A stretch of 25,144 bases of DNA from an uncultured Eubacteriales bacterium. Lineage in GTDB: Bacteria > Bacillota > Clostridia > Lachnospirales > Bianqueaceae. This document shows, in pieces, positions 11,778-19,533 of this stretch (positions within the stretch are counted from its first letter, which is position 1; every line of letters begins with the position of its first letter). The stretch lies in the NCBI GenBank assembly GCA_900322165.1, contig ONYR01000005.1, positions 1 through 25,144 on the forward strand. The letters run 5' to 3'. Below the pieces are notes generated by a model. The model worked only from the letters and a program-made list of their open reading frames with translations, searched no databases and had not been told where the DNA came from. The translations under genes were made by a program, and so were the position numbers.

Positions 11778-12500
11778 TCAGTCTGTTTCGAAATCAAACC
11801 CGTTTTCCCGGTAGGAATAGTATTCTTTGTCACCGAGAATGATATGGTCGATCATCGGAAGTTTCATGATCTTACTTTCTGCATAAAGCAGCTTTGTCAT
11901 CTCGCCGTCTGCCAGCGATGGCAAAGGATCACCGCTCGGATGCGAATGCAGCAGCACAAACCCGTAAGCGCCCCGCTCAAATCCCTGGAGGAAGATCTCC
12001 CTCCCATCGATGAGCGACTGGTTGATCGTTCCCGGGGGCAGCTGCATCTCTGAAAGCATTTCGAGCTTGGAGTTCAGATAGAGGATCCACGCCGTTTCCC
12101 GTTTTAAATAGCGTGTACTCTCCATGTACATGTGGGCGATCGATGCCGGATCCGACAGTCTCACCCTCGTAGCCGCTTCCTTTTGCGCCAGCCGTTTGGC
12201 AAGCTCCGAGATCGCCTGAATCTCGATGGATTTGACCCGTCCGATGCCCTTGAGCGCTCTCAGCTCACTCAGTGAGAGCTGGCAGAAGGCACAGAGCGGA
12301 TCCCACCCGGCCGTATCGACCAGGGACAGAAGCCGGCAAGCCATTTCAAACGCCCTCTCACCCTCTGATCCGTTCCGCAGAACGATCGAGAGCAATTGAG
12401 CATCCGTCAGGGCCGAAGCCCCCTTGAGTTCCACGATCCGATATGGCTGTTCGGATTCGGGCAGGTCCTTCATCGTGACCTTGTTTTCTTTTTGAGACAT
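11778..12500 (-). CDS. radC: RadC/UPF0758 JAB-domain protein
   Basis: LTDAQLLSIVLRNG, HhH-like KGIGRVK, and JAB motif HSHPSG...SLAD...DHIILG. Confidence 0.93.
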   Translation of the reverse strand: MSQKENKVTMKDLPESEQPYRIVELKGASALTDAQLLSIVLRNGSEGERAFEMACRLLSLVDTAGWDPLCAFCQLSLSELRALKGIGRVKSIEIQAISELAKRLAQKEAATRVRLSDPASIAHMYMESTRYLKRETAWILYLNSKLEMLSEMQLPPGTINQSLIDGREIFLQGFERGAYGFVLLHSHPSGDPLPSLADGEMTKLLYAESKIMKLPMIDHIILGDKEYYSYRENGFDFETD

Positions 12501-12565: not shown

Positions 12566-12820
12566 TCACACCTTGCGGTGAACAAAGATCGCAAGGCACA
12601 TGCCGATAATGGACGCAATGTTGATCGAGATCTGAAATCCGAACGTCAGCTGGATCACACTCAGATTCAGCGTGACCGTCGGGATCCCGAACGTTTTTCC
12701 GTAAGCCAGCCAGTAAAAGAAATCATACTGACCCAGCCAATCACCGATAAAACCGCCGACCACAATTCCGGCAAGCAGGAATAAAATCAGCGTCCAGAAA
12801 TTCTTGCCACGTAAAGCCAT
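12566..12820 (-). CDS. Small membrane protein, DUF4321-like
   Basis: Two hydrophobic segments with WLAYGKTFG and LTFGFQISINIASIIG; usual position upstream of radC. Start set to ATG 12820 behind GGAGGAGG. Confidence 0.8.
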   Translation of the reverse strand: MALRGKNFWTLILFLLAGIVVGGFIGDWLGQYDFFYWLAYGKTFGIPTVTLNLSVIQLTFGFQISINIASIIGMCLAIFVHRKV

Positions 12821-12838
12821 AGGATAAGCCTCCTCCAA

Positions 12839-13795
12839 TCAATCACCTGATATTGTACCATGCAAACGATTATTTGTATAGATTTTTCCAAACGCCTTCG
12901 GCACGATGAATCGGTCGATCAAGGGGGTCAGAAGGTTCATTAACAGAATCGAAGCACAGATCGCGATCTCATAGTTTCCGTATACGCGAAGCAGCGTTGT
13001 CAGAACGCCGCAGCCAACGCCGAACACGAGCCGTCCGACTCCGGTCATCGGCGTCGTTACGTAATCCGTTGCCATGAAGAAGGCCGCAAATATCAGCCCT
13101 CCGGTCAGGATCTCGTACATGCCGTTTCCCTTCAGCAGATAAGACAGCACAAAGACGACCGCAATATAGCTCAGCGGAATGCGCAGATCGATGACGCGCC
13201 TAGCCGCAAGGTAAATGCCGCCAAGCAGGATCAGCAGGACCGAAGTCTCTCCGAGATCTCCCGGAACTACGCCCAAAAAACAGCTCATCATGCTCGGAAG
13301 CATTTCAAACTGGCCCTCGGAGAGGTAATACAGCGGGGTGTACACAGGAATTCCGTTGATGCGGAACTCGGTCATGAGTGCCGGGAACACCAGGATCAGC
13401 ATCAGTTTGGCGCTGAGCGCAGGATTCAGCAGATTGCGCCCGATCCCGCCGAACAGCTGTTTCACGATAATGATCGCAAAGAAAGCCCCTACGGCCGGGA
13501 CCCAAAGCGGCACACTGATGGGAAGGTTAAACGCCACCAGAAGGCCGGTCAAAAGCGCGCTGCAGTCCAAAATCGAGACTCTCTTGCGGGAAAGCTTCTG
13601 CCAGGCATATTCGCTCAGAACCGCGGTCGCGCACGAGATCAGTACAATGATGAGAGCGCGGTAACCGAAATAGACTGTTGCAAAGATCAGGATCGGCGTC
13701 AACGCGAACAGCACGTCCCGCATGATCGAAGAGGTCGTATCCGCCCCTCTCGAGTGCGGCGGCTGATAGTAATTCGAAGGAGATCTGTCTTTCAT
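12839..13795 (-). CDS. rnfD: RnfD-like membrane subunit (divergent)
   Basis: IMRDVLFALTP, KQLFGGIGRNLLNPA, GDLGETS and FFMATDYVTTP match RnfD/NqrB; the flavinylation region reads IPVYTPL. Confidence 0.88.
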   Translation of the reverse strand: MKDRSPSNYYQPPHSRGADTTSSIMRDVLFALTPILIFATVYFGYRALIIVLISCATAVLSEYAWQKLSRKRVSILDCSALLTGLLVAFNLPISVPLWVPAVGAFFAIIIVKQLFGGIGRNLLNPALSAKLMLILVFPALMTEFRINGIPVYTPLYYLSEGQFEMLPSMMSCFLGVVPGDLGETSVLLILLGGIYLAARRVIDLRIPLSYIAVVFVLSYLLKGNGMYEILTGGLIFAAFFMATDYVTTPMTGVGRLVFGVGCGVLTTLLRVYGNYEIAICASILLMNLLTPLIDRFIVPKAFGKIYTNNRLHGTISGD

Positions 13796-15252
13796 CGCTC
13801 GTCCTCCTCCGGGGTGGAATCAAACCGTGCTTCTGCGTATCGCTCAGCTTCTGCCCTCAGTTTCAGGTCTCTGCGCTCATTGATCATCGTCTTGCCTTTC
13901 ATGACACTGATGCCCACTTTCCGTCTTGCCGGGCAGACAAAGCTGCAAGCTCCGCATTCGATGCACGTCATACCGCCTGAGGACTCAAAGCGCTTCCAAT
14001 CGCGTTTCGTTACCAGTTTTTCAAGAAAGTACGGCGCAAGCCCCATCGGGCAGGCAGCCACGCAGCGGCCGCACCGAATACAGTGGCTCTCCTCCATCTG
14101 GTGTGCACTTTCTTCGGACATGAGCAAAATACAGGCTGTGGATTTCGTGATCGGAACATCCAGATCTTGCAGCACCGTGCCGGTAATCGGGCCGCCGAGG
14201 ATCACTTTGGCCGCTTCCCTGACCGGAACTCCGCCGTTTTCCACGAGCTCTTTCACGGAGGTACCGATACGGACCCTGTAGTTCCGCGGGCTTTCCAGAC
14301 AGTCACCGCTCAGCGTCACAATGCAGCGCTGCAGCGGTCTTCCCTGCGTTACGGCGCGCGAGATGGCAATCGCCGTATCCACGGAGATGATAAGGATCCC
14401 ATGGCTTAACAGATCCGAGACATCGGAAACTTCTTCATGAAGCACGGTTTCCGCCAGCATCAGCGGATGGTGCTGCGGATACTTGCAGCGAACGATCTCA
14501 ACGCGGATGTGATCGGCTTCATGGTCAATGTAATCGCCCATCACCTCGATCGCTTTCGGCTTGTCATCCGCGATACAAAGGACCGCTTCCGCCTTCGGAA
14601 AAAGCTTTGTCAAGACTCGGATGCCGTTCACGATGCGCCAGGAATCCTCCAGCATTAGACGATAGGCAGCGCTCATCTCCGGCTCCGTCTCTGCGCCGTC
14701 GATCAAAACGGTATGAATCTGCGAAGCCTCAGCTCCCTGCAGCATTTGATCCAAAAACATCTTAGAGGTCGGTTCAATGATTCCCGCCGCGCGGATCCTC
14801 AGACGGATCTCTTCCTCCGGCAGTTCTTTATAGCTTTCCGGGGTGAACGGACGGTCGGCGGTCGTATAGGCATGGTCATTTTCGACGATGATCGAACGGA
14901 CTTTGTCCGCATAGGCCGTGAGCTTCATTGCAATATCTTTGACGGTGCCGGAAACACTGCTGTAAAGCGGCAGTCCCTCTTCCGTCTCCGCAATGATCTG
15001 ATCGCGCTGGACCTTGTCACCGACGGCCACCAGAGCAGTAAATGTGTTGCCATAGGCATCGGTCAGCGGATAGACAAGGTCCTCCTTCGGATCCATGTAA
15101 TCCGCGATCGTCATCTCCTGCGTTTTTTCTTTATCCGGCCGCACCTGAACGCCGCCTCGAAACGTCGGGACGCGAACCGTCACGGACGAAGCCAGATCCC
15201 GGACATTCGAGATCAACGCTTGATAGTTGAAACGTTTATGGATAGGATTCAT
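13792..15252 (-). CDS. rnfC: RnfC-like Fe-S subunit (divergent, NADH/FMN motifs lost)
   Basis: TFRGGV, SSVSGTV, KYPQ, LGGPITG and two CxxCxxCxxxCP motifs (CIRCGRCVAACP, CIECGACSFVCP). ATG 15252 chosen for SD spacing; ATGA overlap with rnfD. Confidence 0.88.
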   Translation of the reverse strand: MNPIHKRFNYQALISNVRDLASSVTVRVPTFRGGVQVRPDKEKTQEMTIADYMDPKEDLVYPLTDAYGNTFTALVAVGDKVQRDQIIAETEEGLPLYSSVSGTVKDIAMKLTAYADKVRSIIVENDHAYTTADRPFTPESYKELPEEEIRLRIRAAGIIEPTSKMFLDQMLQGAEASQIHTVLIDGAETEPEMSAAYRLMLEDSWRIVNGIRVLTKLFPKAEAVLCIADDKPKAIEVMGDYIDHEADHIRVEIVRCKYPQHHPLMLAETVLHEEVSDVSDLLSHGILIISVDTAIAISRAVTQGRPLQRCIVTLSGDCLESPRNYRVRIGTSVKELVENGGVPVREAAKVILGGPITGTVLQDLDVPITKSTACILLMSEESAHQMEESHCIRCGRCVAACPMGLAPYFLEKLVTKRDWKRFESSGGMTCIECGACSFVCPARRKVGISVMKGKTMINERRDLKLRAEAERYAEARFDSTPEEDER

Positions 15253-15286
15253 GTGCATTATCCTTTTTTATGTAGTCGTTCTATTC

Positions 15287-15314
15287 ATTCTACATGATTT
15301 CAGGTAAAAGTCAA
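15287..15314 (-). promoter_or_regulatory. Sigma-A-like promoter for rnfC-rnfD and downstream genes
   Basis: Minus strand TTGACT, 16 bp, TAGAAT in an AT-rich intergenic region. Confidence 0.6.
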
Positions 15315-15316
15315 TA

Positions 15317-15345
15317 TTGCAGGCCTCTTGGAAAATGAGTAGAAT
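15317..15345 (+). promoter_or_regulatory. Sigma-A-like promoter for the C39-like peptidase
   Basis: TTGCAG, 17 bp, TAGAAT; back-to-back with the rnfC promoter. Confidence 0.5.
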
Positions 15346-15387
15346 AAAGGCTGTTCTCATCTTTATTATTGTTTCGGAGGCACGTTT

Positions 15388-15987
15388 ATGCTTTATCTGA
15401 ACCAACAGGATTATCCTGACATTCCCTACCCGAACAATCTCTCCGATCCCGCGTCCAAGGGCGCGACAAACGGCAGCATCGCCTCCTCCGGCTGCGGACT
15501 TTGCGCGATGGCGATGGCCGTGGATCATTTAACCATGCAGTCTTTGTCACTCGAGGAAGCGGTCGAGCTATCCTGCAGCGTCAAAGCCAACCTGAAGCCC
15601 GGCACCGATATGAAGCTGTTCGGAAAGGCGGCGGCCGATGCCTTCGGGCTTCAGATGACGGTCTCGGATGACCCTGAGGAGATGGCTCAGTGTCTGATGA
15701 CTTCCGGACGCGCGATCATCAACGTCGGAGGCGATCATGACGATCATATCGGCATTTTCTCCGACGTTGGCCATTATGTCCTTGCCATCGGTTATCGGGA
15801 TGGGGAATTCTGCATTCTTGATCCGGCTTACCGCCCCACCAAATACAACACGGAAGTGCCGATCCGCGCCGAAAAAGTCCGCGAGGAAGGCATCTTCCTT
15901 TACACGAGGGCCGAGGTCATCATGTCCGATACCGAAAACCGCTCGCCCCGCTTCTATCTGTTCCATCGGAAAACGGATCTGAAGTAA
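15388..15987 (+). CDS. Papain-fold cysteine peptidase, C39-like, no signal peptide
   Basis: Ordered Gln (LNQQD), Cys (SSGCGLCAMAM), His (GHYVLAIG) and Asp (ILDPA); GGAGG RBS. Confidence 0.82.
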   Translation: MLYLNQQDYPDIPYPNNLSDPASKGATNGSIASSGCGLCAMAMAVDHLTMQSLSLEEAVELSCSVKANLKPGTDMKLFGKAAADAFGLQMTVSDDPEEMAQCLMTSGRAIINVGGDHDDHIGIFSDVGHYVLAIGYRDGEFCILDPAYRPTKYNTEVPIRAEKVREEGIFLYTRAEVIMSDTENRSPRFYLFHRKTDLK

Positions 15988-16067
15988 GCCCCGGCTTTCG
16001 CCATGCATGTTGTGCCCTTGCTCGCACAATGCTTTCAAAGAAACGTGCGCCGCTGGGCGCACCATAA

Positions 16068-16101: not shown

Positions 16102-16122
16102 GTGTTTCAACCAATTTCCCGA

Positions 16123-16536
16123 TCAGTCGATCAGGCACTCCTTGTACTCTTCAGGAATGTCCGCTTCATCGCAGCAAAGGCTGATGATGAAGTGAATGTT
16201 GTAGCGGTCAGCTACTTCCTTAACACGGTCAAGCAGTGTGCCGATCTCATCGACTTCGATCTTAGCGTTCTTTAAAAGACCATCGATAAATACGGTGTTG
16301 ATGTCATAGTCCTGAGAAAGAATTCCGCAAACAAAACCGAAAAACTCGCCGCTGGTCTTCAGCGGATATTCCGCGATCTGAACCAGACGGATTGAATAGT
16401 CGAGACGGAAGATCTGACTTTCGTCAGCGTCGACGTAAACGATATGACCATTGTTGGTTTTGACAAGAGTATTCGCCATGTCAATTAAGGCTTTGGTCTT
16501 TCCGGCTCCCTGACGTCCGGCAATTAATTGAATCAT
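16123..16536 (-). CDS. Small P-loop NTP-binding protein of unknown function
   Basis: Walker A GRQGAGKT, Walker B-like VFIDG, AAGGAGG RBS, own promoter and terminator. Confidence 0.85.
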   Translation of the reverse strand: MIQLIAGRQGAGKTKALIDMANTLVKTNNGHIVYVDADESQIFRLDYSIRLVQIAEYPLKTSGEFFGFVCGILSQDYDINTVFIDGLLKNAKIEVDEIGTLLDRVKEVADRYNIHFIISLCCDEADIPEEYKECLID

Positions 16537-16561
16537 AGGATAGTACCTCCTTCATCTTCTA

Positions 16562-16614
16562 TCACAGATTTTCTGTGTTTCACAGAGAATCTGTAGGAAC
16601 GCGACAATCTGTGA
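16562..16614. repeat. Tandem imperfect palindromes CACAGA-N3-TCTGTG with 18-bp period
   Basis: Units at 16563 (CACAGATTTTCTGTG), 16581 (CACAGAGAATCTGTA) and 16599 (ACGCGACAATCTGTG). Confidence 0.7.
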
Positions 16615-16630
16615 ATCGAATTGTTGATTT

Positions 16631-16659
16631 ATTATAACAAACGAATTCACGCTTTTCAA
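16631..16659 (-). promoter_or_regulatory. Sigma-A promoter for the P-loop gene
   Basis: Minus strand TTGAAA, 17 bp, TATAAT with an extended -10 TGn. Confidence 0.72.
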
Positions 16660-16686: not shown

Positions 16687-17673
16687 TTACAATTGGATCG
16701 GATTTTCGAAAATCCGTCGGAAGCTTTCGGGAATGTCGGCCGTGATGCTTTTCCCTTTCAGATAGGCAAGAGCCTCCGGACATTCCCGAAAAACGATCTG
16801 AGCGGCAAGGAGCATCTGCGAATAGGTTTTTCCGTCCTTTTCCCTTCCGCCGTATTTGCCGTCCGCCAGGATCGGATAGCCGTGATGGGAAAGCTGCGCA
16901 CGGATCTGGTGGCTTTTTCCCGTCAGCAGCTCCACCCGCAGTAGGCTCGCGTCCTTCTCCTGCGCGATCATCCGAACCTTCAGCCGGCAGATCTCCCAGC
17001 CGTTTTCCAGCCTCGTTTTCTCTTCCTTTTCGCGATACTCTTCAACGCTGGCCATGTTTTGCTTCCGGTCTTTCCGGTAAAAATCCTTCAGCTCCGTTTC
17101 CTGCTTCCAAATGGTGGCTTGACCGGATACTGCCGCAAGATAGATCTTATCGATCTGTCTTTCCTTGATCATCTCCGAAAGAGCGCGCGCCGCCTGCAGC
17201 GTTTTGGCCATCAGCATGACCCCTTCGGTATTGCGGTCAAGCCGGTGCACGAACGCCGGCTCATACGTTCCCTCCGGCCATTCTCCCTTATCCTTAAGGT
17301 ATTGCCGCATGCACTCGGTCAACGACACATCCTTCGCTGTACTTTTCTGCGAAAGCATGCCGACCGGCTTACAGACCGCAAGGATGTTTTCATCCTCGTA
17401 AAGGATCGGAATATGATGGTAAGGCGCTTCCGGCTCTTTCTTTGTCTGATGATAACCGAACTCAGCAAGCTGTTCATCGGTCAGATACAGACTCACCTTC
17501 ATGCCTGCATGAAGCATCAGTTCCGCTTCCTTGGCATGCTTCCCGTCAACTCTCACCTTATTCTGCCGCAGAGCTTTAAACACAAAGCTGCGCGGGGCTT
17601 TGGGAAGCAGTTTTTCCAGATAACGGCCGAGCTTTCTGCCTTCATCGCCGCTTCCGAGAATCAGCTCGATCAT
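16687..17673 (-). CDS. RluA-family pseudouridine synthase with S4 domain (RluC/RluD-like)
   Basis: S4-like N-terminus, ILYEDENILAVCKPVG, catalytic HRLD, LLTGKSHQIR, GYPILADGKYG. Confidence 0.93.
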   Translation of the reverse strand: MIELILGSGDEGRKLGRYLEKLLPKAPRSFVFKALRQNKVRVDGKHAKEAELMLHAGMKVSLYLTDEQLAEFGYHQTKKEPEAPYHHIPILYEDENILAVCKPVGMLSQKSTAKDVSLTECMRQYLKDKGEWPEGTYEPAFVHRLDRNTEGVMLMAKTLQAARALSEMIKERQIDKIYLAAVSGQATIWKQETELKDFYRKDRKQNMASVEEYREKEEKTRLENGWEICRLKVRMIAQEKDASLLRVELLTGKSHQIRAQLSHHGYPILADGKYGGREKDGKTYSQMLLAAQIVFRECPEALAYLKGKSITADIPESFRRIFENPIQL

Positions 17674-18323
17674 GTCTCTTCCTCGCCTTCCAGGGTCTGT
17701 TCCCTGACTTTCCGGCGGATCCGCTGAATCGCATTGTCAACAGCCTTCGGACTCATTCCGAGTTTCTTCGCGATCGCCTGGTAGTCCGGATCCTTCAGAT
17801 ACAGCAACAGTACCTTGCGCTCCATTTTCGAGAGCCTGCCCTCGATCATATTCAGCAGTTCCTTCTCCGCAGACTGGCTCACAGCCCTTTCTTCCGGAGA
17901 AAGCGACGTTTCATCCGGCAGCAGATCGATCATGGACCGCTCCACGCCGTCTTCGTCAGGAATGACCTGATCCAAAGAGACAGCCTGATTCAGCGGTTTC
18001 TGCTTATCCCTCAGCGATGCCCTCACCGCATCGGTGATCTGCCTCACCATGCACAGATGAGCAAAGGAACGGAACCGCGCGCCCATGTCCGAACGGTAAT
18101 CCACGACCGCCTTGTACAGCCCGATCATGCCCTCCTGCACCAGATCCTCACGGTCAGCTCCCACAATATAGTAAGCCTTCGCCAGCCGCTTCACGATCGG
18201 CTTGTAGCGCTCAATGAGCACCTCGGTCTCCACCATCGACGAACTGCTCTCGCGGCTCTCGTGGATCCGGCGGATCAGCTCCTCATCGGTCAAAATCAGA
18301 AGTCCGGGATCATATGAATTCAT
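17670..18323 (-). CDS. sigH: RNA polymerase sigma factor SigH
   Basis: DREDLVQEGMIGLYKAV, FRSFAHLC, RDKQKPLN and KAVDNAIQRIRRK; downstream of rlmB. Confidence 0.9.
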   Translation of the reverse strand: MNSYDPGLLILTDEELIRRIHESRESSSSMVETEVLIERYKPIVKRLAKAYYIVGADREDLVQEGMIGLYKAVVDYRSDMGARFRSFAHLCMVRQITDAVRASLRDKQKPLNQAVSLDQVIPDEDGVERSMIDLLPDETSLSPEERAVSQSAEKELLNMIEGRLSKMERKVLLLYLKDPDYQAIAKKLGMSPKAVDNAIQRIRRKVREQTLEGEEET

Positions 18324-18332
18324 CTTGTATCC

Positions 18333-19082
18333 TCAATTAAACCCGCGCTGATGCGCCGCTTCGTACATGAGAATGCCGGCTGCGACCGATGCATTCAGTG
18401 ACGTAACCTTTCCCTTCATCGGAAGACTCACGACAAAATCACAGCGCTCCTTCACAAGACGCGTGATGCCTTCATGCTCCCCGCCGATCACAAGCGCCAG
18501 CGGGCCTTTAAGATTCGTCTCATAGATATTCTGCCCGTCCATGTCCGCACAGGCGGTCCAGATGCCACGCTTTTTCAGATCATCCACCAGCTTGGCTATG
18601 CTCGAGACCTTTGCGACGGGAACATACTCCAGCGCTCCGGCTGCGGTTTTTGCGACCGCTTCCGTCAGCCCGACCGCATTGTGCTTTGACACCACGACAC
18701 CGTGCACGCCGACGCACTCGGCCGTGCGCAGGATCGCTCCGAGATTGTGCGGATCCTGAATGCTCTCGCAGATCAAAAGGAACGGGGCCTCCCCCTTTTC
18801 CTCTGCCTTCTTGAGAATGTCTTCTACGTCGACGTATTCCGTTGCGGCGCACTGGACAACGACTCCCTGATGGTGACCGCCCTGTGCAAGCTCATTGAGC
18901 TTCTCGCGGTCACAGACCTGGATCGGGATGCGCATCTCCTTGGCCTTAGCCACGATCATCTGGAGCGAGCCTTGATACGGCGGCTTATCCACGAACATCT
19001 TCTCGATGCTCCGGCCGGACTTCAGCGTCTCTGAGACGGCATTCCGCCCGTAAATATACAGTGATTTCTCTGAATTACTCAT
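18333..19082 (-). CDS. rlmB: 23S rRNA G2251 2'-O-methyltransferase RlmB (SPOUT family)
   Basis: IYGRNAV, HHQGVV, IQDPHNLGAILRTA, LVIGGEHEG, SLNASVAAG. Start revised to ATG 19082, overlapping the mrnC stop. Confidence 0.94.
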   Translation of the reverse strand: MSNSEKSLYIYGRNAVSETLKSGRSIEKMFVDKPPYQGSLQMIVAKAKEMRIPIQVCDREKLNELAQGGHHQGVVVQCAATEYVDVEDILKKAEEKGEAPFLLICESIQDPHNLGAILRTAECVGVHGVVVSKHNAVGLTEAVAKTAAGALEYVPVAKVSSIAKLVDDLKKRGIWTACADMDGQNIYETNLKGPLALVIGGEHEGITRLVKERCDFVVSLPMKGKVTSLNASVAAGILMYEAAHQRGFN

Positions 19083-19533
19083 TTGATTTATCCTTTTCCT
19101 GAGCCGTTTCAAACCCGATATACCCAAGGCCCTTGCCGATCAGCTCCGCCAGTCTCTCCGTTTCCCCTTTCAGATACAGATAGCCAAGCAGCGCTTCAAG
19201 CCCCGTCGCCCATTTGTAATCGATTGGGGACTGGTTCTTCGGGATCGTTCCCGAATGCTGATTGCGGGCTTTTCGGAAAACTTCCTTTTCTTCCTCCGTC
19301 AGATCCTCCATCAGGAGCTTGACCATGCGCGCTTGCGCGGCCGCATTAACGACCGCAGAAGCTTTCTGATGAAGCTCTTTCGGATGAAGCGTCGTTTCCG
19401 ATACGAGCCTGGTGCGCACGTAGAGATCGAGGATCGTGTCCCCGACATAAGCCAGAGACAGCGGCCGGATATTCTCCGGTGCGATCTCACGTCCGCCAAG
19501 TCCGCTCTCGATTTTTAATTCCAGCTGTTTCAA
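19075..19533 (-). CDS. mrnC: Mini-ribonuclease III
   Basis: LAYVGD, VNAAAQA, FRKARN, YKWATGLEALLGYLYL. Probable TTG start 19533 overlaps the GNAT stop (TTGA). Confidence 0.92.
   Translation of the reverse strand: MKQLELKIESGLGGREIAPENIRPLSLAYVGDTILDLYVRTRLVSETTLHPKELHQKASAVVNAAAQARMVKLLMEDLTEEEKEVFRKARNQHSGTIPKNQSPIDYKWATGLEALLGYLYLKGETERLAELIGKGLGYIGFETAQEKDKSNE

Follow-up and report, generated by a model that had tools for sequence, protein, structure and literature searches.

The Rnf complex, solved from Clostridium tetanomorphum (7ZC6), Acetobacterium woodii (9ERI), and Azotobacter vinelandii (8AHX), has six subunits that are encoded together, and its RnfC subunit carries canonical motifs for flavin mononucleotide (FMN) and NADH. 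Here, we describe an rnfC-rnfD pair in a 25,144-nucleotide (nt) stretch of DNA from an uncultured Eubacteriales bacterium of bovine and sheep rumen or gut (contig ONYR01000005.1, positions 1 to 25,144; called the window below). Of the 393 contigs in its 2.13-Mb metagenome-assembled genome (MAG), whose estimated completeness is 75%, the window is the largest. The pair shares with Rnf the descent of its locus, the RnfC fold with both [4Fe-4S] motifs, and the RnfD fold with the residues proposed for Na+ and riboflavin. Unlike in Rnf, only rnfC and rnfD are present at the locus and the other four subunits were not found in the 75% complete genome. All four FMN/NADH motifs of RnfC are replaced, the RnfD consensus for flavinylation by ApbE is degenerate, and ApbE was not found. 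Because these subunits, motifs, and consensus are lost, the pair is predicted from its sequence to be neither a ferredoxin:NAD+ oxidoreductase nor a pump of the known kind. We think it fairly probable that the pair is a selected remnant with a function other than that of Rnf.

Outside complete Rnf, the RnfC-type fold occurs in PrdC of proline reductase and in PduS-type proteins, soluble proteins that retain a flavin site and work with other enzymes. The remnant RnfC, in contrast, is paired with an RnfD and lacks the flavin motifs. It scored 104 bits with the PrdC model TIGR04481 (cut-off, 490), and its neighbors are rnfD and cell-shape genes, with no prd neighborhood. In NqrA-NqrB of the Na+-translocating NADH:quinone oxidoreductase (7XK3, 8A1Y), as in the remnant, a flavin-less, RnfC-derived cap sits on an RnfD-type subunit and is held by its N-terminal arm, and a role in stabilizing NqrB has been proposed for NqrA (PMC12174285). 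However, NqrA has also lost both Fe-S clusters and sits inside a six-subunit pump, whereas the remnant keeps the Fe-S ligands and no partner subunits were found. The window proteins scored 32 to 64 bits with nqrA models (cut-offs, 321 to 819; 45.6 against 321 in one) and 99 to 150 bits with nqrB models (cut-offs, 350 to 792), and no nqr genes lie near the pair. A full-text literature search returned no description of stand-alone RnfCD remnants.

The pair and its immediate surroundings are laid out as follows, in the order of transcription.

15287 to 15314, minus strand: promoter-like site TTGACT-16-TAGAAT directly upstream of rnfC, 10 of 12 positions, a consensus match only
13792 to 15252, minus strand: rnfC, 486 amino acids (aa) from the ATG at 15252; P0001 is the 488-aa version from an upstream in-frame ATG at 15258
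12839 to 13795, minus strand: rnfD, 318 aa (P0002), membrane subunit; PF03116 and TIGR01946; match to 7ZC6_D with E = 1e-92
12821 to 12838, minus strand: rnfD-DUF4321 junction, 18 nt with a strong GGAGGAGG ribosome-binding site; the site of rnfG, rnfE, rnfA, and rnfB in relatives
12566 to 12820, minus strand: DUF4321, 84 aa, first gene 3′ of the remnant; context only, no part of Rnf

These coordinates bear out the original prediction, made from the sequence alone, that intact rnfC and rnfD overlap by 4 nt (rnfC stop and rnfD start) and that rnfD ends 18 nt before DUF4321, with the rnfD stop codon TGA at 12839 to 12841 and the DUF4321 ATG at 12820. For the promoter that it assigned to the pair, a promoter-like site was found upstream of rnfC. 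For the rnfC start, the spacing to an AGGA ribosome-binding site favors 15252 over 15258, and gene callers chose the 486-aa start on three contigs from close relatives. Against Pfam and NCBIfam profiles, RnfC matched TIGR01945 with 346.6 bits (cut-off, 246), and RnfD matched TIGR01946 with 267.6 bits (cut-off, 207) and PF03116 with 338.6 bits; both proteins fell below the cut-offs of the NCBIfam equivalog models RsxC and RsxD. RnfC consists of an RnfC_N barrel, a remodeled NuoF-like former flavin domain, an SLBB domain, a ferredoxin domain with two [4Fe-4S] motifs, and a charged, lineage-specific C-terminal tail.

Close relatives of the pair were taken from metagenome assemblies: L032 (99% identical), L031 (RnfC, 78%), and L030 (76%, with rnfD cut by the contig end). 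L032, an independent assembly from the European Nucleotide Archive, has the identical 18-nt junction between rnfD and DUF4321, and L031 has the order rnfC-rnfD-DUF4321. This matching layout rules out an assembly artifact and upholds the earlier claim that rnfGEAB is missing from the locus itself. In addition, 60 to 92% of the window's words are present in DNA runs of several studies, and the species is abundant in samples of bovine and sheep rumen.

As references for the window RnfC we used the structure from C. tetanomorphum (7ZC6_C) and another 45 RnfC homologues; the motif coordinates were verified by translation.

14746 to 14784, minus strand: remnant of the glycine-rich FMN/NADH loop, reading GIIEPTSKMFLDQ; canonical GIVGMGGAGFPTH
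14677 to 14700, minus strand: DGAETEPE; canonical NGAECEPY
14458 to 14481, minus strand: YPQHHPLM; canonical YPQGxExx
14179 to 14196, minus strand: GGPITG; canonical GGPMMG
14047 to 14082, minus strand: first CxxCxxCxxxCP motif, CIRCGRCVAACP, intact
13930 to 13965, minus strand: second CxxCxxCxxxCP motif, CIECGACSFVCP, intact

The glycine loop carries G162E, G164T, G165S, and P169L (G162, G164, and P169 are present in 45 of the 45 homologues and G165 in 44), and the next motif carries N187D and C191T (conserved in 45 and 43 homologues, respectively). The third has G263H and E265P, both conserved in all 45, and the fourth has M358I and M359T (45 and 44). In the window lineage, these ten positions of the FMN/NADH site, each conserved in 43 to 45 of the 45 homologues, are all replaced. 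The four sequences of that lineage, 76 to 99% identical overall, do not differ from one another at the rewritten motif residues. The eight Fe-S cysteines (C393, C396, C399, C403, C432, C435, C438, and C442) are invariant in 49 of 49 RnfC sequences, and the remnant RnfC carries the ligands for two putative [4Fe-4S] clusters. Over its whole length the protein deviates at 38 of 114 highly conserved columns, and none of the 38 lies inside the two cysteine motifs. The loss of four flavin/NADH motifs with retention of all eight cysteines, first read from the sequence against canonical motifs, is confirmed by this alignment.

In the remnant RnfD, only 8 of the 84 columns with 90% or higher conservation are changed. 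Its flavinylation site reads as follows.

13337 to 13357, minus strand: RnfD flavinylation site NGIPVYT; canonical D-G-V-[ST]-x-A-T; Thr153 kept, with D, S/T, and A replaced

The 78% relative reads NGIQIYT at this site, with the Thr invariant. N90, N124, E183, and D244 of the remnant align with N90, N124, E185, and D248 of C. tetanomorphum RnfD (7ZC6_D), which were proposed to serve Na+ passage and riboflavin binding (Vitt 2022, PMC9588780). The original prediction had overlooked the degenerate flavinylation consensus, along with the independent recurrence of the truncation within the genus (see below).

Searches with family hidden Markov models, and with tblastn using every subunit of three operon types, revealed no RnfA/E (PF02508), RnfG/FMN_bind (PF04205), RnfB, or second RnfC or RnfD in the 2.13-Mb assembly. 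ApbE, present in seven of seven other species of the genus, was not found in this MAG. The missing ApbE and Rnf subunits fit the degenerate flavin sites; since the MAG is incomplete, their absence is unproven. The search for a second complete rnf operon that the original prediction had proposed was thus carried out on the whole assembly, and returned none from a genome that is 75% complete.

All five other genomes of the genus that are truncated at the locus (G001, G002, G003, G006, and G007) have a second, divergent, complete rnf operon elsewhere, and the two with a full operon at the locus (G004 and G005) have no second one. Together with the completeness of the MAG, this distribution favors a rival explanation, in which the remnant is an alternative C/D module that plugs into the RnfG, RnfE, RnfA, and RnfB of a second operon in the unassembled quarter, forming a hybrid with a different cytoplasmic output. 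We regard such a hybrid as unlikely. No fragment of RnfA, RnfE, RnfG, or RnfB was seen in the 2.13 Mb, and ApbE, which the other species of the genus have, was not found here. The second operons also bring their own RnfC and RnfD, which are only 29 to 44% identical to the remnant. The remnant RnfD is without the flavinylation consensus needed to take electrons from RnfG, and a remnant RnfC without an NADH site would have no known output.

The second operon of G002, G003, G006, and G007 is of a type, also seen in genus g4, that encodes an RnfD-RnfG fusion of ~529 aa with PF03116 and FMN_bind (L029, 6731 to 8320, plus strand, in G006). A genome from another family of the order (G027) has a partial cluster (L026, 5331 to 9475, minus strand) in which RnfC and RnfD, with canonical motifs, are followed by a 340-aa FMN_bind protein and then by a 260-aa protein that belongs to no known family. 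Contig L026 carries no RnfA/E, and a full rnf operon lies elsewhere in that genome.

We then estimated the ratio of nonsynonymous to synonymous substitution rates (dN/dS, or omega), mainly as NG86 values. Between the window and L031 and L030, dN/dS was 0.088 to 0.092 for RnfC and 0.09 to 0.13 for RnfD, with 0.19 for the flanking RluA and 0.12 for SigH. In an independent truncated lineage with unsaturated dS (0.35 to 0.46), the comparison of G006 with G007 gave 0.10 for RnfC and 0.13 for RnfD; the corresponding values for neighbors were 0.11 (RadC), 0.17 (MreD), and 0.04 (MreB). The ratio, whose estimation the original prediction had called for, is therefore ~0.1 in two independent lineages and not near 1. 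When three diverged sequences of the window lineage are compared, 70% of RnfC residues are invariant overall, against 26% of 4-fold degenerate sites. The invariant fraction is 66% at the 38 switched sites, 74% in the former flavin domain, and 68% in the Fe-S domain, so constraint on the former flavin domain equals that on the remainder of RnfC. Pseudogene decay is ruled out by dN/dS values of ~0.1 and by the conservation of the replacement residues. With the invariant cysteines, these data sustain the view that the pair was selectively retained rather than left to decay at random.

A functionless relic might still be kept if it stood between a needed promoter and DUF4321-radC-mreB, with selection acting only against polar stops or toxic misfolding. 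The promoter-like site upstream of rnfC agrees with this idea, as do a sequence scan that found no terminator-like site between rnfD and DUF4321, the deletion of rnfC in G003, and the faster evolution of the truncated (orphan) copies relative to canonical ones. Selection against polarity alone, however, would leave dN/dS at ~1, and the observed ratio is as low as in neighboring housekeeping genes; the replaced pocket residues are conserved as well. Furthermore, rnfGEAB was erased down to 18 nt whereas rnfCD stayed whole in three lineages, which argues that deletion of C/D was selected against. We judge a mere relic quite unlikely.

The faster evolution of the orphans is visible in several comparisons. 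The ratio of RnfC distance to flank distance was 0.67 to 0.73 between full operons, 0.86 to 1.49 between orphans and full operons, and 1.2 to 1.9 between orphans. In the RnfC+RnfD tree, the branch of the full copy in G005 measures 0.17 and that of its orphan sister G001 measures 0.74; the stem of the window lineage measures 0.79 and its tips 0.14 to 0.17. Both proteins evolved ~3 to 5 times faster after truncation than their canonical sisters, and the pattern of rates suggests rapid change that later slowed.

To place the pair in its history, we compared the locus in the eight species of the genus in the genome collection and in G009 of a neighboring genus (nine genomes; G000 is the window's genome). 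The flanking genes of the window are as follows.

18333 to 19127, minus strand: RlmB
17670 to 18323, minus strand: SigH-like sigma factor
16687 to 17673, minus strand: RluA-family pseudouridine synthase
16123 to 16536, minus strand: orf137, a small P-loop protein
15388 to 15987, plus strand: C39-peptidase-like gene, between orf137 and rnfC
11778 to 12500, minus strand: RadC

Transcription on the minus strand runs through RlmB, SigH-like, RluA, orf137, rnfC, rnfD, DUF4321, RadC, MreB, MreC, MreD, and a PBP2-like gene, and the order RlmB-SigH-RluA-orf137-[rnf]-DUF4321-RadC-MreBCD-PBP2 is syntenic in the nine genomes. Between orf137 and DUF4321, a full rnfCDGEAB operon is present in G004, G005, and G009; the window, G001, G002, G006, and G007 have only rnfC and rnfD at the locus, and G003 has only rnfD. 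Six of the eight species are therefore truncated. The full operons match the original prediction's expectation of rnfCDGEAB at this position, upstream of radC and mreB; the maf gene that it also expected is not here.

A tree of 11 flank proteins, (G009,(G004,((G000,(G001,G005)),(G003,(G002,(G006,G007)))))), had support of at least 96/98 at all nodes. On this tree, approximately unbiased (AU) tests rejected a single clade of truncated genomes (P = 7e-6) and a sister relationship of the window genome and G001 (P = 1e-5). The concatenated RnfC+RnfD tree is congruent with the flanks: the orphan of G001 is sister to the full copy of G005, and the window lineage is sister to both. It, too, rejected all orphans as one clade (P = 0.0145), and it did not reject a grouping of the window lineage with the orphans of G002 and G006 (P = 0.098). 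One ancestral truncation for all orphans is thus ruled out by both the flanks and the RnfC+RnfD tree. At least two independent deletions of rnfGEAB are robust; three is the best-supported and most likely count and is unproven.

As the RnfC+RnfD tree follows the flank tree, a paralogous or horizontal origin of the pair is ruled out, and the suggestion of a regulatory paralogue fails, because the pair is itself the ancestral copy, shortened where it stood. The C39-like gene (orf199), shared by the window lineage and the G002 clade but absent from G001 and G005, had raised the alternative that G005 regained its full operon by recombination. This is disfavored: gene tree and flanks agree in placing G005 and G001 as sister to the window lineage, which favors vertical descent.

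The junction in G001 is different. There, RnfD runs in frame into the polyferredoxin part of the ancestral RnfB, whose remaining cysteine motifs are intact. The fusion (L020, 6708 to 8432, minus strand; 574 aa) retains the FdII+III part without the RnfB membrane helix and first cluster domain, and it adjoins an RnfC whose flavin motifs are close to canonical. Since the globular part of RnfB binds firmly to RnfC in the solved complex and is anchored on RnfD (PMC9588780), the fusion is structurally sensible; it could form a ferredoxin:NAD+ short circuit that does not pump. Between rnfD and radC, DUF4321 has been lost from G003, G006, and G007 (L025, L021, and L023) and present in G002, which indicates further, or separate, deletions at the locus.

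The remnants of the genus share with the window the locus, the ancestral operon, intact open reading frames, and, where rnfC is kept, all eight RnfC cysteines; purifying selection is also shared by G006 and G007. They differ in stage: the flavin motifs are near canonical in G001, slightly altered in G006 and G007, and independently rewritten in G002, and G003 is without rnfC.

The synteny also bears on the proposal of the original prediction, that the pair is a membrane-anchored Fe-S redox sensor or regulator tied to the cotranscribed cell-elongation machinery. Retention of the Fe-S cysteines with loss of the flavin sites would suit a sensor, and the remnant is contiguous with DUF4321-radC-mreBCD-PBP2. 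Moreover, contigs from RNA libraries of four studies (~97 to 100% identical) map to rnfC, rnfD, DUF4321, radC, and mreB at similar low depth, which is consistent with transcription of the pair; no contig from the four studies falls on 15164 to 16015. However, the same adjacency accompanies the full operons of G004, G005, and G009 and is ancestral synteny. Since genomes with a full operon share the order rnf-DUF4321-radC-mreB, adjacency to mreB carries no functional weight, and cotranscription with the elongation genes does not hold as a sign of new function. In addition, G003, G006, and G007 lost DUF4321 but keep rnfD, and the pair has no regulatory domain and shows no evidence of contact with Mre proteins. 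A sensor of this kind is, in our view, highly improbable. The redox sensor and electron relay named in the original prediction are conjectural roles.

An AlphaFold2 model of the remnant RnfC had a predicted local distance difference test score (pLDDT) of 86.5, falling to ~58 around the former glycine loop. In Foldseek comparisons, its template modeling (TM) score, by target length, was 0.88 to 0.92 against RnfC of 9ERI, 7ZC6, and 8AHX (0.92 for 9ERI and 7ZC6) and 0.67 to 0.76 against NqrA. The predicted complex of the two remnant proteins reached an interaction prediction score from aligned errors (ipSAE) of 0.71, with 0.00 for the best control; runs shared at least 88% of contacts, and partner pLDDT was at least 81. 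The ipSAE mark used is reached by 58 of 80 solved complexes and by 2 of 110 mismatched pairs. Because a similar complex has already been solved, passing this mark shows likeness, not binding by this copy. The predicted interface joins RnfC residues 387 to 447 (the Fe-S domain), 356 to 362, and 34 to 42 with RnfD residues 8 to 24 (N-terminal arm), 245 to 252 (a loop), and 298 to 304 (C terminus). This docking matches the published mode, where RnfC buries the N-terminal arm of RnfD (PMC9588780). A simple reason for the retained cysteines may lie in that the Fe-S domain is the surface that docks RnfC on RnfD, both in the predicted complex and in the published structure (Vitt 2022, PMC9588780).

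Taken together, the data show that an ancestral six-gene rnfCDGEAB operon was shortened in place by deletion of rnfG, rnfE, rnfA, and rnfB. The FMN/NADH pocket of RnfC was rewritten in the window lineage, and separately in G002, and RnfD lost its ApbE flavinylation consensus while retaining the Thr. Afterwards the pair came to rest under purifying selection (dN/dS of ~0.1), with the new pocket residues fixed in relatives that are 76 to 99% identical. The products may still form a membrane-bound heterodimer, with RnfC docked by its Fe-S domain and wrapped around the N-terminal arm of RnfD, as in RnfC-RnfD and NqrA-NqrB. Such a heterodimer would be unable to oxidize NADH. Without the iron centre of RnfA/E, the shuttle RnfG, and the input module RnfB, it presumably could not complete the Rnf pump cycle either. 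Most probably, RnfD carries the selected function, because RnfD is kept in all six truncated genomes and the residues proposed for Na+ and riboflavin are kept here; about half of our confidence in a selected remnant attaches to this RnfD-centered form. The remnant RnfC would serve as a cytoplasmic cap that bears Fe-S clusters, intermediate between a canonical RnfC and NqrA, which has no cofactor. Candidate roles for the pair are ion conduction, a ferredoxin-fed membrane electron acceptor, or a structural role.

A bolder possibility, which we hold to be rather doubtful, is that a self-sufficient two-subunit device arises repeatedly as Rnf is dismantled. In it, the two [4Fe-4S] clusters of an RnfC lacking flavin would gate or feed an RnfD-type cation pathway with bound riboflavin, giving a redox-gated ion channel or a ferredoxin-linked electron sink. 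The rewritten pocket (EPTSK, DGAETEP, YPQHHP) might bind a new ligand, and the pair might be a living intermediate between RnfC and NqrA.

Several points weigh against a selected remnant with its own function. ApbE and a second rnf operon may be encoded in the quarter that the MAG lacks; a second operon is present in all five other truncated genomes. In the window lineage, dS is 1.1 to 1.7 and hence near saturation, and omega of canonical RnfC/D pairs spans such a wide range (0.02 to 0.31) that omega alone is no proof of a changed regime. The loss of rnfC in G003 shows that at least one lineage can dispense with RnfC. The score of the predicted complex may stem from solved Rnf structures that the model has retained. 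Finally, the RNA data are short assembled contigs from which strand, single transcripts, and DNA carry-over cannot be judged.

Two neighbors of the pair have features of their own. The C39-like gene (199 aa) gives a weak Peptidase_C39_2 match (23.3 bits; cut-off, 24). It is divergent to rnfC, and its dN/dS of 0.05 to 0.14 marks it as a real gene. It occurs in the window lineage, G002, G003, G006, and G007 and is absent from G001, G004, G005, and G009; this patchy distribution hints at a mosaic history of the locus and is the single feature to do so. The 137-aa product of orf137 is a mini P-loop NTPase with the Walker A motif GRQGAGKT that matches no Pfam or NCBIfam family above cut-off; similar clusters are named "PilT family" in the Atlas. 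It is 78 to 83% identical across the genus, against 45 to 65% for its neighbors, and shows by far the highest depth in four RNA libraries (4 to 37, against 2 to 5 for neighbors), with transcript-like contigs at 16102 to 16611. It has its own strong promoter-like site at 16659 to 16631 (11 of 12 positions), and, relative to the flanks, it is inverted in G002, G004, G006, G007, and G009. As for an RNA gene at orf137, there was no Rfam match, and the scan of the window found only a tRNA.

For one genus, the locus offers a natural series that leads from the full operon (G004, G005) through fresh truncation with fusion (G001), mild change (G006, G007), and a rewritten pocket (arising separately in G002 and the window lineage) to RnfD alone (G003). 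From it one can read which parts of Rnf are worth retaining once the pump is gone, and it parallels the descent from RnfC that has been proposed for the cofactor-free NqrA. The case contributes an ancestral state preserved at one and the same locus, truncation that recurred independently in one genus, a graded series of decay and remodeling, and estimates of selection. It also has a practical side: pipelines label such genes "RnfABCDGE type electron transport complex subunit C/D," and Rnf would then be scored as present when the metabolism of rumen and gut Clostridia is reconstructed, which would be wrong here. If the remnant has an activity of its own, it would represent an undescribed membrane Fe-S module.

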